Notes under the pieces: generated by a model
Told to the model about the DNA's origin: nothing
Seen by the model: only the letters and a program-made list of their open reading frames with translations
The model's database searches: none
Source: Clostridia bacterium
Lineage (GTDB): Bacteria; Bacillota; Clostridia; Oscillospirales; CAG-272
NCBI GenBank assembly: GCA_017453325.1
Contig: JAFTKK010000040.1
Span: 11,022-75,021, forward strand
Length of the DNA stretch: 64,000 bases
Direction: 5' to 3'
Shown here: positions 4,513-57,144 of the stretch, piece after piece
How positions within the stretch are numbered: the stretch's first letter is position 1
How the letters are laid out: every line of letters starts with the position of its first letter
Position numbers and translations under genes: made by a program

Positions 4513-6230
4513 AGCTGATCTTTCATTATTTGCGCCCCCTTTGGCGCACGATAACCCTCGGGCTCAGCATCAAGGTGCTGGCCACGCTCTTTGAGCTCAC
4601 ACTCCCCTACATACTCAGCCACATTCTTGACGTGGTGGTGCCCACGCACGAGATCAAAAGCATTGTGCTGTGGGGTGGTGTGATGGTGGGTGCGGCGCTC
4701 TTTGCCATGATCGGCAACATCACCGCCAACCGCAACGCGGCAAGGGTTGCACGCGAGGCCTCACGCCGCATCAGACACGATCTGTTTGACGCGACCATGC
4801 ACCTCTCGGCACGGCAGACGGACACCTTTACCGTGCCCTCGCTCGAAAGCCGCCTGACCTCGGACACCTATAACGTACACCACTTTATCGGCATGATGTA
4901 GCGCATGGCGGTGCGTGTGCCGATCCTGCTGCTTGGCGGCATTGCCATCACGCTGGTGCTTGACTGGCGCCTTGCGGTGGTGATGATCGTGACGCTGCCC
5001 TTTATCGGCGGCTCGGTATTTCTCATCACACGCCGCGGCCTGCCCTTGTATCACGAAACACAAAAGGCGGTGGACGGGATGGTACGCGTGGTGCGCGAGG
5101 ACTGCCAGGGCGTGCGCGTAATCAAGGCGCTCTCCAAGGAGGACTATGAGAGCCGCCGCTACGATGCCGTCAATCGCAATCTGATAGAAAAGGAGCGCCG
5201 CGCGGGTGTGACCATGGCGCTCTCACAGCCGCTGATGACCCTGTTTTTAAACATCGGCCTCGTGGCAGTCATTCTGGTGGGTGCGTATCTCGTCAACGAC
5301 GGGCTCTCAATGCCCGGACGCATCATCGCATTTATTCAGTATTTTACGCTGATGTCGGGCGCAATGAGCGCCATGACGCGCATTTTCGTGCAATCGACCA
5401 AAAGCGCGGCATCGGCCAACCGCATCGGGGAAGTGCTGCACGCCGCAGACACCTCACGCAAAACAAACACGCTGCGCCACCCCGAAAATGACGAGCGATT
5501 TATCGTATTTGACGACGTTTGCTTCTCGTATAACGGCAAAAAGGACAACCTTTCTCACGTCAGCTTTACCCTGCCCCGCGGCGGCACACTCGGTGTGATC
5601 GGTGCGACGGGCTCGGGCAAAACGACTTTGGTTTCCCTCTTGCAGCGCTTTTACGACATTGACAGCGGCAGCATCCGCATCGGTGGCGAGGACATTTACG
5701 CCATGGAGCGCGAGCGGCTGCACCAAATGTTTGGCGTTGTGATGCAAAACGACTTCATCAGCGCCGACACGGTAGCCGAAAACATCCGCTTTGGCCGCGA
5801 CATCGGCGACGGGGAGATACGCCGCGCCGCACGCCTGGCACAGGCCGCCGACTTTATTGAAGCCTTTGCCGACGGATACGAGCATCAGCTGACCGCAAAG
5901 GGCACGAACGTTTCGGGCGGCCAGCGGCAGCGCATTCTGATCGCACGTGCGCTGGCGGGAAGCCCCGATATTCTCGTACTGGACGATGCCTCCTCGGCTC
6001 TTGACTATAAAACAGACGCCTGCCTGCGCCGCGCGATCCGCGAGGAGCTGGCGGATACCACGACCGTGGTGGTGGCACAACGCGTGAGCTCGGTCAAGCA
6101 CGCAGATCACATTTTGGTGCTGGAGGACGGCTGCGTGATCGGTGCGGGCAAGCACGAAGAGCTGCTTCTCACCTGCCCTGCCTACAAGGAGATCAGCGAT
6201 TCGCAGATGGGAGGTGCGTTCCTTGAATAA
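4509..6230 (+). pseudogene. ABC exporter (TMD+NBD) subunit 1, interrupted by one in-frame TAG at 4899-4901
   Basis: GTG start overlaps the marR stop; ORFs 4398..4901 and 4905..6230 share a frame (..SRLTSDTYNVHHFIGMM*RMAVRVP..); Walker A GATGSGKT, signature VSGGQRQR, Walker B ILVLDD. Confidence 0.8.
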
Positions 6231-12451: not shown

Positions 12452-12481
12452 TAAAAAAGGCGTGCTAAGCACGCCTTTTTT
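12452..12481. terminator. Bidirectional terminator at the left edge of XRE module 1
   Basis: aaaaaaggcgtgct-a-agcacgcctttttt. Confidence 0.8.
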
Positions 12482-12698
12482 ACTGTAATTTTTTCGGACT
12501 ATCGGTAAGGCCGGCAAGATAATCGAGGCTGACATTATAAAACCTAGCCAGTTCAATAGCGCGGCTAAACGGCATTTCTCTTTTGCCGGATTCATAGGTA
12601 CTGTAATACTGATATGTGGTGTTTAAAACCTTAGCAATATCCTGTTGGGTCAAGTCTCTGTCTTCTCGCATGTCTCTGATGCGTTGTGCATATTTCAT
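12480..12698 (-). CDS. XRE/Cro-CI family HTH repressor (72 aa), module 1
   Basis: RIRDMREDRDLTQQDIAKVLNTTYQYYSTYESGKR...LARFYNVSLDYLAG; RBS ggagg before ATG 12698. Confidence 0.9.
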   Translation of the reverse strand: MKYAQRIRDMREDRDLTQQDIAKVLNTTYQYYSTYESGKREMPFSRAIELARFYNVSLDYLAGLTDSPKKLQ

Positions 12699-12737
12699 AA
12701 TTTGATCCTCCAACGCCTGTAAATTCGAACAAATCTT

Positions 12738-12806
12738 ATCACATATGATGGGTTCGACTTGACTTTTTAATCACATGTGGTTATAATTAAGTAAATCACA
12801 TCTGAT
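12738..12806. promoter_or_regulatory. Divergent promoters with three ATCA-N4-TGAT operators
   Basis: ATCACATATGAT 12738-12749, ATCACATGTGGT 12770-12781, ATCACATCTGAT 12795-12806; + strand TTGACT (12759-12764)-17-TATAAT (12782-12787); minus-strand extended -10 TGaTAAGAT overlaps site 1. Confidence 0.8.
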
Positions 12807-12820
12807 TAAAGAGGACTTTT

Positions 12821-13093
12821 ATGAAAAAAATAATCGAGGCGCTATGGCACGAAACACATATCTTGCCCTGCGAAGAAAGCTTTTTGGCAAATCCACAATA
12901 TAAAAAATTATTGCAGACACGCAGTACGGCACGTGAAAAGCTGGAGACGGCACTGAGCGAGAAACAAAAGTGTTTGCTATCCGAATTCGATGATTGCGGT
13001 ACAGAATTGTCAAAATTCTGCGAAAAGGAAATATTCGTCCGTGGCTTTCGTCTCGGTGCGCAGTTGATGCTTGAAATGCTCTCCAAAGAGTAA
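12821..13093 (+). CDS. Small helical protein resembling DUF6809, module 1
   Basis: 90 aa; MKKIIEALW...EKLETALSEKQK...FVRGFRLGAQLMLE; RBS aagagga. Confidence 0.75.
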   Translation: MKKIIEALWHETHILPCEESFLANPQYKKLLQTRSTAREKLETALSEKQKCLLSEFDDCGTELSKFCEKEIFVRGFRLGAQLMLEMLSKE

Positions 13094-13098
13094 AAACA

Positions 13099-13143
13099 GG
13101 AGGCCGTGCAGACCCATTGGGGTTTGCACGGCCTCCGCTTTTT
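13099..13143. terminator. Terminator between the DUF6809-like gene and the convergent ETF gene
   Basis: ggaggccgtgcagaccc...gggtttgcacggcctcc followed by a T-run. Confidence 0.75.
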
Positions 13144-13162: not shown

Positions 13163-14548
13163 TTAAAAAACGAGATCCTCGGCGCGGGCAATGATGCCGT
13201 AATCGGCATAGTCAAAGATGGGGGCGTTTTTATCGGGATTGATGGCAATGACGGTGCCCGCACGCGACATACCGACCACGTGATGCACAGCACCCGAAAT
13301 GCCCACCGCGATATAGACTGCGGGGCTGACGGCTTTACCGGTAAGACCCACCTGACAGTCATAGGGCAGGAGACCCTCGTCCACGGCACGGCGGCTGGCA
13401 GCAAGAGAAGCGGAGAAATGTGCGGCAAGGGCTCTCACCCGATCAAGCGACGCGGCGGCGCCAATGCCTGCCGCCACCACCACCTCGGCGCTCTCTTGGC
13501 TGAGCGTGCGCACGGTGGCAAGCGCGGGGCGCGTGCGGCTTTTGATCTTGGCCATAATACTGCCCGCTTGCGCGGGGCGGATCATAAAAAGCTCCTGCCC
13601 ATCGGTTTCAAGCGCCGTACAATCGGCGCAAAGACCAAGCCCCAGTACAGCCGCGACGCGCGCGGCGCACTCGCGCCCTGCGGTATCGGTACCGAAAAGC
13701 ACCGCGGCGGGGCAATCTCGCCGGATTGCCTCAATAACGGCATCGGCTTGGCAGTCACGAAGCACGGTGACACGCTCTGCCACAGCCTTAGCGTAAGTAA
13801 GGGGGGCTTCCCCGACGGAAAGCACCAAGGGAAGCTTATTTTCGCACCCGTTTTGTGGGATAATGCCTTCTTGTCTCTTGCCAAGCGAAGCGCGAACGAC
13901 CCCGTCAAGCTCGGCAGGAGAAATAAATCGGCAGCGGCGTCTGCCGCCCTCATTTTCCGCGGTAGCAATGACCCTTGTGGGGGAGCCTGCAAGCCCCGTG
14001 CGTGTGGGGTCGGCACCGAGCGCCGCGAGGGACACGGTCTTTACCTCGCCTGCGCGCGAGCGCAGGGAGGGCAGACGCAGCGCATGAATGCGCTCAAAGG
14101 TAAGCAGGGCGGGCAGAGACAGCTGCCTTTCGCCCTCGCGCGTGGCAACAAACACCTTATCCCCCTCCTCACGCGGTGTGGCCATGACGCCGCTGACAAG
14201 CGTGAGATCGGCGAGGGCCGCGAGCATAGCACCCGTTTGCGCGGTATCGCCCACCAGCGTTTGCCTGCCGCAAAACACGAGATCGGGCTGCAGGCGTGCA
14301 ATGGCAAGAGAGAGCGTATAAGCGGTTGCCAGGGTATCGACACCCGCAAACAAGGGATCGCTCAGCAGCACGGCCTCCTTTGCCCCCAGACGCGAAAGAC
14401 GCGAGAGCAGGTCTGCCGTGCGCGGCGCACCCATACTGAGCAGCGTGACCTCGGCGCCCTTCATTTGCAGCGCGGCCTCGTAGGCGGCGGCATCAAAGGG
14501 ACCGAGCTCACCGTCAAGCCCTTGACGGACACAAACCACGATCCTCAT
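13163..14548 (-). CDS. Fused electron transfer flavoprotein beta-alpha subunits
   Basis: N-terminal EtfB motifs (IVVCVRQ, LSMG, DTLATAYTL, GRQTLVGDTAQTG); C-terminal EtfA motifs (GLCADCT, ASRRAVD, QVGLTGKAV, GISGAVHH, AINPDKNAPIF). Confidence 0.85.
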   Translation of the reverse strand: MRIVVCVRQGLDGELGPFDAAAYEAALQMKGAEVTLLSMGAPRTADLLSRLSRLGAKEAVLLSDPLFAGVDTLATAYTLSLAIARLQPDLVFCGRQTLVGDTAQTGAMLAALADLTLVSGVMATPREEGDKVFVATREGERQLSLPALLTFERIHALRLPSLRSRAGEVKTVSLAALGADPTRTGLAGSPTRVIATAENEGGRRRCRFISPAELDGVVRASLGKRQEGIIPQNGCENKLPLVLSVGEAPLTYAKAVAERVTVLRDCQADAVIEAIRRDCPAAVLFGTDTAGRECAARVAAVLGLGLCADCTALETDGQELFMIRPAQAGSIMAKIKSRTRPALATVRTLSQESAEVVVAAGIGAAASLDRVRALAAHFSASLAASRRAVDEGLLPYDCQVGLTGKAVSPAVYIAVGISGAVHHVVGMSRAGTVIAINPDKNAPIFDYADYGIIARAEDLVF

Positions 14549-56387: not shown

Positions 56388-56657
56388 TTATTTTCCAAAA
56401 TTCCCCGCGTCCAAGAGAAATGAAACACCAAATTCGCACCCTGTGAAAAACGCCTTCTTTACAAAAAGTGCCTCCATATCGTACAATGCCTCAACATATT
56501 TTTCCACCGCCTGCTCTTGTTCTTTATTAAGCAAAGCACTTGCTTTTTCGTGTAGCTCTGCGGCCTTTTTTGTCAGCTTTCGCTCTTCATCCGTATCAAT
56601 TGCGGCGCATTCGCCCGACAAATAGTCATTCCATAGCTTTGCAAGTGTTTCTTTCAT
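56388..56657 (-). CDS. Small helical protein resembling DUF6809, module 2
   Basis: 89 aa; MKETLAKLW...EKASALLNKEQ...KAFFTGCEFGVSFLL, same pattern as 12821..13093; RBS gggagg. Confidence 0.7.
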   Translation of the reverse strand: MKETLAKLWNDYLSGECAAIDTDEERKLTKKAAELHEKASALLNKEQEQAVEKYVEALYDMEALFVKKAFFTGCEFGVSFLLDAGNFGK

Positions 56658-56673
56658 TTTCTTCCTCCCTCAA

Positions 56674-56752
56674 TAGTCCAAAAGCGAACTAAATATAGTA
56701 TAGTTCAGATGCGAACTAAAGTCAACCCTTTTTAGTTTATTTGTGCTATAAT
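56674..56752. promoter_or_regulatory. Divergent promoters with TAGTTC-N6-GAACTA operators
   Basis: TAGTCC-aaaagc-GAACTA 56674-56691; TAGTTC-agatgc-GAACTA 56701-56718; minus strand TTGACT (56720-56725)-17-TATACT (56697-56702); + strand extended -10 TGcTATAAT 56744-56752. Confidence 0.8.
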
Positions 56753-56778
56753 TTTTAAAAAAGCACAGGGTGATAAAA

Positions 56779-56997
56779 ATGGATGTATATCAAAGGCTAA
56801 AAAACCTAAGGGAAGACGCTGATAAAAGTCAGGAAGAAATTGCAAAAATCATAGGTACCAGTCAATCTTATTACGCCCAGTATGAAAACGGAAAAAGAGC
56901 CATTCCGTTTGAGCGCATGGTCGCTTTGGCAAGATATTACAATGTTTCTCTTGACTATCTGGCAGGATTTATCGACACACCGAAAAAGCTTAAATAG
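56779..56997 (+). CDS. XRE/Cro-CI family HTH repressor (72 aa), module 2
   Basis: RLKNLREDADKSQEEIAKIIGTSQSYYAQYENGKR...LARYYNVSLDYLAG. Confidence 0.9.
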   Translation: MDVYQRLKNLREDADKSQEEIAKIIGTSQSYYAQYENGKRAIPFERMVALARYYNVSLDYLAGFIDTPKKLK

Positions 56998-57002
56998 CTA
57001 AC

Positions 57003-57048
57003 AATAAAAAAGGACGAAGAATTTTTACATTCTTCGTCCTTTTTTATT
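57003..57048. terminator. Bidirectional terminator at the right edge of XRE module 2
   Basis: aataaaaaaggacgaagaat-ttttac-attcttcgtccttttttatt. Confidence 0.8.
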
Positions 57049-57144
57049 ATTGATATGATCAAAGACAGCAATCTTGTCAAAAGCCTATTCGCTTACCTTT
57101 CGGCAATAAAGCCCCTGTAGTGCAAGACGGATTATGACCCTTCG

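Follow-up and report, generated by a model that had tools for sequence, protein, structure and literature searches.

An XRE-DUF6809 islet in a Clostridia genome as a candidate self-contained repressor/effector cassette

The stretch of DNA analysed here, hereafter the window, covers 64,000 nucleotides of a Clostridia bacterium (GTDB order Oscillospirales, CAG-272; assembly GCA_017453325.1, contig JAFTKK010000040.1, positions 11,022 to 75,021 of the forward strand) whose genome is assembled to 1.97 Mb in 91 contigs and is 83% complete. An islet at 12452-13143 of the window contains an XRE gene of the HTH_3 family on the reverse strand that is divergent from a DUF6809 gene on the forward strand, separated by a 122-bp spacer. 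The locus raises the question of what such a pair, laid out like a phage switch, does among bacterial housekeeping genes. An initial annotation of the window proposed that the small gene encodes an effector silenced by its own repressor, and this proposal is strongly supported, as far as sequence can speak to repression, by the covariation of operator half-sites with repressor recognition helices and by conserved promoters. We consider it probable, at roughly 0.6, that the islet is a self-contained, horizontally acquired and insulated repressor/effector cassette.

The spacer of this pair, copy 1, carries the motif ATCACATNTGRT three times, at 12738, 12770 and 12795, with no other match in the 64-kb window and none in any of 100 shuffles (expected count 0). 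These are the three near-palindromes of the form ATCA-N4-TG(A/G)T described in the initial annotation, and the two assigned to the DUF6809 promoter were both located by scan. This promoter, TTGACT-17-TATAAT (12759..12787, forward strand), agrees with the consensus at 11 of 12 positions; operator 2 (ATCACATGTGGT, 12770..12781) is within its -35/-10 spacer and operator 3 (ATCACATCTGAT, 12795..12806) is between its -10 and the AGAGGA ribosome-binding site. Operator 1 (ATCACATATGAT, 12738..12749) overlaps a putative weak extended -10 of the XRE gene, XRE1.

Covariation between repressor and operator was observed in a set of 28 control regions, composed of 23 from XRE-clade loci of other Clostridia, the four of the window's genome and one from a genus relative, with pairs that have a short or cut DUF6809 open reading frame (ORF, <80 amino acids) retained. 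The XRE-clade loci come from a search of one genome per species with an XRE alignment, which returned at least 597 stretches; 80 were kept and all belong to Clostridia, mostly gut metagenome-assembled genomes. Palindromes were identified with a script that takes a perfect palindrome as its seed and compares each control region with 40 shuffles. The half-site of the repeated palindrome varies with the recognition helix of the XRE, while the positions of the sites are constant. Repressors with the helix TSQSYYAQYENG are accompanied by AGTTC-N6-GAACT in 8 of 12 cases by script, and imperfect versions were seen by eye in the same places in the other four. The helix ITRQQYQLYESG is paired with GCATTCA..TGAATGC (6/6 by script), MKYQQYARYE with AACC-N4-GGTT (2/2) and TTQPQY with TATCC-N4-GGATA (2/2, one of them the copy on contig C65 of the window's genome). 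Single cases are XRE1 itself, with AATCA-N4-TGATT, and the copy on contig C20 of the same genome, with CA(A/T)CA-N4-TGTTG. At least eight putatively orthogonal repressor/operator specificities were seen. The start-to-start spacings of the operators are similar throughout, at about 27-33 and 22-26 bp, and the script found three or more sites in 11 of the 28 regions and two in 14, which undercounts the sites because the seed must be a perfect palindrome. In 11 of the 28 regions none of the 40 shuffles reached the observed palindrome score. The DUF6809 promoter matches the consensus at 11 or more of 12 positions in 21 regions and at 10 or more in all 28, with a 17-bp spacer in 25.

These patterns provide strong indirect evidence that each XRE represses its own DUF6809 partner and itself. 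We infer self-binding and the shutting of a strong promoter because the covariation, the fixed positions and the conserved near-consensus promoters all match what such a repressor would be expected to leave in its control region. The 72-amino-acid XRE would bind as a dimer to three palindromes of 12-16 bp in the 122 bp between the divergent genes. Two of the palindromes, which bracket and fill the spacer of the near-consensus housekeeping-sigma promoter, would shut off the DUF6809 gene, and the third, over the weak promoter of the XRE gene, would provide negative autoregulation. Upon loss or inactivation of the repressor the strong promoter would fire and DUF6809 would be made. Since the four cassettes of the genome carry different half-sites, they would be insulated from one another.

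The window's genome encodes four DUF6809 genes, two in the window and one each on contigs C65 and C20, and a divergent XRE of the same clade faces all four. The four partner XREs are also the four best XRE-clade matches in the genome. The second copy in the window, annotated at 56388-57048, is confirmed as a DUF6809 gene, D2 (56388..56657, reverse strand), divergent from an HTH_3 gene, XRE2 (56779..56997, forward strand, 72 amino acids). The 89-amino-acid D2 product matches the DUF6809 model over positions 1-84 of 85 (E 2e-9, 38.6 bits, gathering cut-off 27 bits). Its control region (56673..56751) contains the operators AGTCCAAAAGCGAACT (56675) and AGTTCAGATGCGAACT (56702), a third, half-conserved site beside the TGCTATAAT -10 of XRE2, and a TTGACT-17-TATACT promoter for D2 on the reverse strand; a border hairpin terminator is present at 57000..57051. 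XRE1 and XRE2 are 57% identical and differ in their recognition helices, and D1, the DUF6809 protein of copy 1, is 20% identical to D2. The four modules share no nucleotide similarity beyond their coding parts, and the operators of copies 2-4 have no further occurrence outside long ORFs in the genome. The isoelectric points of the four DUF6809 proteins are 4.8-6.1 (6.1 for D1) and those of the XREs are about 9.

Operator 1, flanks included, recurs as a perfect copy (TATCACATATGATGG) elsewhere in this genome (G000), on contig C91 at about 5915-5957 (L154:1916-1958). It lies just past a terminator, between a TATAAT and the GGAGG/GTG start of a gene for a glycoside hydrolase family 29 (GH29) alpha-L-fucosidase (Pfam E 2.8e-52). 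It is the sole strict XRE1-type match outside the module in the genome, against about 0.9 chance matches expected genome-wide from base composition. From its promoter-proximal place, XRE1 may also control a host glycan-foraging gene.

The islet itself has the coordinates and anatomy originally described, an AT-rich, terminator-bounded unit in which a 72-amino-acid XRE is divergent from a 90-amino-acid gene product. XRE1 (12480..12698, reverse strand) is 72 amino acids long counted from an ATG that follows, by 7 nt, a GGAGGA ribosome-binding site read from the sequence (12706..12711, reverse strand). Both assigned families were recovered by hidden Markov model search with scores over the cut-offs: XRE1 (E 1.8e-14, 53.9 bits) and XRE2 (68.4 bits) are members of HTH_3 (gathering cut-off 23 bits), and D1 (12821..13093, forward strand, 90 amino acids, preceded by the AGAGGA) matches DUF6809 (PF20648) over model positions 1-85 of 85 (E 1.2e-19, 71.3 bits). 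XRE1 is an HTH_3 repressor without a sensor domain, and its C-terminal tail, YNVSLDYLAGL-D-PKKL, is highly conserved across the clade. The left border is a bidirectional terminator (12452..12482), a perfect 15+15 hairpin with T/A runs on each side, that is common to the upstream esterase gene on the forward strand and XRE1 on the reverse strand. The right border (13099..13143, forward strand) is a terminator with a 17-bp stem and a T run, with the hairpin at 13099-13136. GC content is 0.37-0.43 inside the islet versus 0.55-0.66 outside (flanks about 60%), and in Rfam the module has nothing beyond chance matches below threshold, which fall on the terminators. To the right of the islet, 13163-14548 on the reverse strand encodes a 461-amino-acid protein with two electron transfer flavoprotein (ETF) domain stretches and an ETF_alpha FAD domain, which looks like a fused EtfB/EtfA.

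The initial annotation also suggested that the pair belongs to a family of modules, and this is the case, with the four pairs of this genome joined by a divergent DUF6809 gene at 23 of the 80 XRE-clade loci of other Clostridia (four of the 80 are cut by a contig end). Alternative partners of the XRE clade, recognised by eye from translations, are AbrB-like peptides, secreted cell-wall-hydrolase-like proteins, membrane proteins and a FemAB-like enzyme. The variety of partners makes the XRE clade a general local repressor, with DUF6809 as its commonest cargo. Among loci L036-L114, AbrB-like peptides of 54-56 amino acids are opposite the XRE at L100 and L108 and small membrane proteins at L085 and L107. 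Secreted proteins with an AAYENTH..NTGN motif occupy this place at L054, L067 and L095, and helical proteins of 106-118 amino acids with a DUF6809-like C-terminal motif at L112 and L113. On contig C2 of genome G194 (L165:5079-6266) a single XRE is opposite two consecutive DUF6809 genes. The closest XRE1 relative (81% identity), at locus L035, retains the ATCA-N4-TG(A/G)T sites with the same spacing, and also a TTGACT-17-TATAAT promoter whose spacer holds a site; a stretch of some 600 bp that includes a second XRE gene occurs as a repeat next to it.

DUF6809 at large is a mobile-element family of Clostridia, and its genes are often neighbours of recombinases of the tyrosine or serine type. A profile of 21 members identified 7,315 clusters at 50% identity (E <=0.001), nearly all stand-alone proteins of about 85-130 amino acids. 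The immediate neighbours at 51 DUF6809 loci include TnpV, phage integrases, Arc-like and helix-turn-helix (HTH) proteins, NlpC/P60, D12 methylase, TIR, reverse transcriptase and DUF6550/Flg_new proteins. Within 6 kb, 11 of 43 loci have a recombinase of one of these two types, tyrosine or serine, a lower bound with no background rate to set against it. A recombination directionality factor is encoded beside the site-specific recombinase on which it acts; the window's DUF6809 copies have no recombinase nearby, and the window's genome, at its 83% completeness, has three PF00589 matches and no PF00239 match. Phage and plasmid collections contain distant DUF6809 relatives in only 2-3 unannotated records. 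In MT835506.1 (an unverified 'Bacteriophage sp.' record; L144:3730-5275), the DUF6809 gene overlaps an upstream gene for a 91-amino-acid protein of no known family. Next after DUF6809 come two genes that, by eye, look like an excisionase-like HTH gene and a replication-initiator-like one; the overlapping pair of the 91-amino-acid gene and DUF6809 recurs in six class-level loci (L127, L129, L130, L141-L143).

A tree of 70 DUF6809 members, from which rows with fewer than 70 model positions were dropped, shows the XRE-linked state to be clustered, with 9 changes where shuffling gives 21 on average, and a count this low in none of 500 shuffles; of its labels, L004 is mislabelled and actually XRE-linked, and L018 is indeterminate, being cut by a contig end. 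The XRE-linked state, as read from this tree, is not of single origin. D2 and the C20 copy belong to a clade whose 18 members are nearly all XRE-linked, the C65 copy to a clade of four, and D1 forms a long branch that is sister to an integrase-linked clade. Members of this clade, the one nearest D1, are located 64-163 bp upstream of 310-amino-acid integrases or at the edge of low-GC islands, and its viral-contig matches are in 4 of 4 cases beside large serine recombinases. Some DUF6809 genes converge on serine recombinases. At L147, L148 and L149 (genomes G011, G003 and G010) the DUF6809 gene of this clade stands at the border between the core (GC 0.5-0.6) and a low-GC island (0.32-0.42) carrying polysaccharide-synthesis or large ATPase-like genes.

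The XRE-linked modules are found in a different setting. The flanks of 27 modules are housekeeping genes that differ from genome to genome, and a survey of 126 ORFs of at least 200 amino acids around them includes, among the first 25 of 90 and the first 25 of 70 families, RsmB/F, peptidyl-prolyl isomerases, DEAD helicases, NrdD, argininosuccinate synthase, SpoIIIAE, ETF and FGGY kinases. In the same families no restriction, methylase or cyclic-oligonucleotide-based antiphage signalling (CBASS) genes are adjacent to the modules. Tyrosine- and serine-recombinase models of our own, which matched 5 and 8 expected controls, gave no match in 458 ORFs from 25 XRE-linked loci and the whole window, which holds 2 of the 27 modules. 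The absence of an adjacent phage, integrase or transposase gene, remarked on in the initial annotation, thus stands after a Pfam survey of the neighbours and the recombinase scan. No relative of the copy-2 clade was confirmed by tblastn in 2.9 million viral contigs. With neither a recombinase match nor a viral copy-2 relative, the modules are not obviously decayed prophages, and the housekeeping flanks show likewise that the pair is not always part of a larger decayed prophage or integrative and conjugative element.

Size and composition were measured in 21 modules, namely the two window copies and 19 pairs whose DUF6809 ORF reaches at least 80 amino acids, with the C65, C20 and L017 copies left out. 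The cassettes measure 593-671 bp from stop to stop with intact ORFs, and their GC content is below that of the flanks in 21 of 21 (median 0.38 vs 0.51). Neither inverted nor direct repeats recur at the ends of the 21 modules, and a 17-nt inverted pair flanks copy 2 only. Orthologous loci were compared in search of empty sites, as proposed in the initial annotation. The relative closest at this locus, whose left flank is 80% identical at the DNA level, has no module; another gene directly follows the esterase gene there, and the two flanks are on separate contigs. The two flanks of copy 1 are adjacent in no relative searched and are on different contigs in G055 and G042; the locus is therefore a synteny break at which a clean empty site is not definable. 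The sequencing runs listed for the stretch are two DNA runs and no RNA run. In the two DNA runs no empty-site allele was seen, as contigs bridge both borders and no joint skips the module.

The uniform 593-671 bp, the intact ORFs and the housekeeping flanks speak against the first alternative, in which integrative elements or prophages lost their other genes by deletion and left the islets behind as regulatory remnants that persist without current function. This reading, which we regard as unlikely, draws on the ties of DUF6809 to mobile elements and recombinases, on the low GC content, the long branch of D1 and the loss of the cargo gene at L035, and on the patchy, often multi-copy distribution of the family in relatives, where 12 of the 24 further genomes from the genus have it, each with at most 5 matches, as do 89 of 401 genomes and 66 of 219 genera of a Clostridia sample (up to 10 matches in one genome). 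It sits poorly with recombinase models that matched control loci and nothing at the 27 modules, with promoters and operators conserved in 28 modules, and with the copy-2 clade, which has 11 invariant residues across 15 genomes and no relative in the viral contigs. Tandem arrays of XRE-DUF6809 pairs, which also exist, speak against decay as well; contig C5 of genome G112 (L169:5984-8763) has three pairs in direct tandem.

The next question is what the DUF6809 protein does. The predicted structure of D1 (predicted local distance difference test, pLDDT, 82) begins with a short helix and continues as a long helical hairpin (residues 25-44 and 47-89), and the conserved positions of the family are an N-terminal L-W, often LWxGNxxP, and a C-terminal F-x3-F/GF-x-LG motif. 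C17 and C74 of D2 are invariant or nearly so in the 15 genomes of the copy-2 clade, and this pair of conserved cysteines hints at a redox or metal site. Pfam, NCBIfam and PADLOC searches with D1 and D2 gave no DNA-binding, toxin or other informative family match. Searches with the D1 model returned no match at E <=0.001 against the Protein Data Bank (Foldseek), only generic helical hairpins in the wide VIA-align search (best Z 5.3 over 48 residues), and only DUF6809 or unnamed clusters in the ESM Atlas. A complex prediction of two XRE1 chains with D1 scored 0.02, where the mark to reach is 0.32, which weighs neither way on binding. As a predicted acidic helical hairpin that bears no signature of an enzyme or a DNA-binding protein, DUF6809 must work through contact with another protein, and we infer that it originated in mobile elements and is a protein-binding effector kept silent. 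As its target we tentatively prefer mobile-element machinery or an incoming element, in a conflict, exclusion or recombinase-modulating role.

A second alternative holds that DUF6809 is a repressor-gated toxic or defence effector, similar to DicA/DicB or CapH, that arrests growth or excludes phages once the repressor is lost. That three operators should keep a consensus promoter shut suggests that making the product is costly, and some DUF6809 genes adjoin TIR and ATPase genes in low-GC islands. The XREs give weak, generic-HTH PADLOC matches to capH and restriction-modification control proteins (E 3e-7 to 3e-6, among them 2.9e-7 and 3.7e-7), but PADLOC 2.0 has no model matched by D1, D2 or the integrase-linked relative at L005, and for the C65 copy the single match, a weak one, is to a model of a DNA cytosine methylase (DruM2|DruM, E 0.0033). 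DicB, a small protein of a prophage, offers a precedent: its overexpression is toxic and it also protects from phage, according to two reports (10.1101/2023.04.14.536235, PMC6832061). The modules nevertheless have no protease or sensor partner, DUF6809 matches no toxin family, and the two genes are not co-transcribed like those of a type II toxin-antitoxin system, and so we find this role improbable. A bistable switch of the TP901-1 CI/MOR type, with DUF6809 as an anti-repressor that binds its own XRE to give two heritable states, shares the layout and a weak XRE alignment to the N-terminal domain of CI, and is very unlikely given that DUF6809 is unrelated to MOR, is widespread without an XRE, so that its own repressor cannot be its only target, and that a switch lacking an output gene would have no selectable function.

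Several observations weigh against the reading of the islet as a self-contained repressor/effector cassette. A site was placed by the initial annotation over the extended -10 of the XRE, and the site is there, at 12738, but the putative XRE1 promoter is a weak extended -10 (TGATAAGAT, reverse strand) read by eye, and a consensus promoter scan gave no reverse-strand promoter for XRE1. In 17 of the 28 control regions at least one of the 40 shuffles equalled the observed palindrome score, and in 3 of 28 the script found one repeated palindrome or none. Pairing of the two families, which was to be counted across genomes, holds for 4 of 4 DUF6809 genes here and 23 of 80 XRE-clade loci elsewhere but is not obligatory, as 53 of the 80 loci have another divergent partner or nothing recognisable and most DUF6809 genes sampled across the class have no such XRE. 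The fourth perfect XRE1-type site, before the fucosidase gene, means that copy 1 may not be fully autonomous. D1 is orphan-like, without a close homologue in 5.8 billion proteins (a word-based search returned only D1), and L035 (3900-5220) has a 9-codon ORF in place of DUF6809, so copy 1 could be decaying. In addition, the neighbour families listed are the first 25 of 90 and the first 25 of 70, and the recombinase models, used both around the modules and in the 6-kb scan of the wider family, are narrow.

A further and quite speculative extension, to which we give little credence at present, is that XRE-DUF6809 pairs are portable switches of about 0.6 kb without a recombinase and with orthogonal operators, whose effector acts on site-specific recombinases or incoming elements, making them host-held triggers or exclusion devices against mobile DNA. 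If so, gut Clostridia would accumulate portable switches, up to four in this genome and as tandem arrays elsewhere. If DUF6809 acts on mobile-element machinery, it would be a new player in the conflict between mobile elements and hosts in the gut microbiome. The XRE-gated form offers an experimental handle on DUF6809, as a fragment of 0.7 kb on which a strong promoter, operators of defined sequence and a predicted repressor are found together, and the naturally orthogonal pairs of small repressors and operators would be useful parts for genetic circuits in gut anaerobes.

Among known systems, the module resembles the lambdoid cI/cro and CTXphi RstR immunity regions, in which an HTH repressor of the XRE type is likewise combined with three operators and divergent promoters within about 100 bp of control DNA. 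The initial comparison with cI/cro holds for the divergent promoters and multiple operators and does not extend to the partner or the location. D1 and D2 are not second DNA-binding proteins and are predicted to be helical hairpins, the XRE has no C-terminal oligomerisation or cleavage domain, and a cI/cro-type switch sits in a prophage with integration and lytic genes, whereas the module sits among housekeeping genes with no recombinase matched. RstR (NF041951) is the best NCBIfam match of the XREs (E 2e-12), but with 47.3 and 48.9 bits against a curated cut-off of 80 the XREs are not RstR members.

The CI-MOR switches of TP901-1 and phi13 are reported to be functional at less than 1 kb, with a repressor and a small helical modulator that are divergent and with three operators (PMC7250872, PMC11149083), and the module is similar in size, divergent promoters, three operators and small helical partner. 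The N-terminal domain of TP901-1 CI gives a weak alignment with the XRE profile (E 1.2e-4). TP901-1 CI has 180 amino acids with oligomerisation domains, in contrast to the 72 of the module's XRE, and its switch is in a prophage beside int and xis, unlike the module. DUF6809 and MOR are unrelated (hhalign probability 0.14%). DicA-dicBF of the Qin cryptic prophage is similar in that an XRE repressor is reported to silence a divergent small protein on a chromosome without a live phage (10.1101/2023.04.14.536235). DicA matches the XREs of the module only at E 0.002-0.017, far below the cut-off, and its effector is of another family; Qin is a recognisable prophage remnant, whereas the islets are units of 0.6-0.7 kb among housekeeping genes.

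Restriction-modification C proteins and CapH are also small XRE dimers, of about 70-100 amino acids without a sensor, that autoregulate through palindromic boxes. Restriction-modification C genes are located upstream of their target and are co-directional with it. The modules differ from both systems in having no restriction, methylase or CBASS genes beside them. The module departs from a type II toxin-antitoxin pair, a co-directional and usually overlapping operon of two genes with a recognisable toxin, in its divergent genes with separate promoters and in the lack of a toxin-family match for DUF6809. Within Pfam, D1 and D2 are members of DUF6809, and the XRE-gated, recombinase-free arrangement is limited to particular clades of that family. 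A literature search on 'DUF6809' and 'PF20648' returned no paper naming the family, and although the layout is familiar, the effector family, the recombinase-free form, the multiplicity and the orthogonal operator codes are without description in the literature searched. The module would work like the small phage switches cI/cro and CI/MOR and like DicA/DicB, and belongs to none of them.

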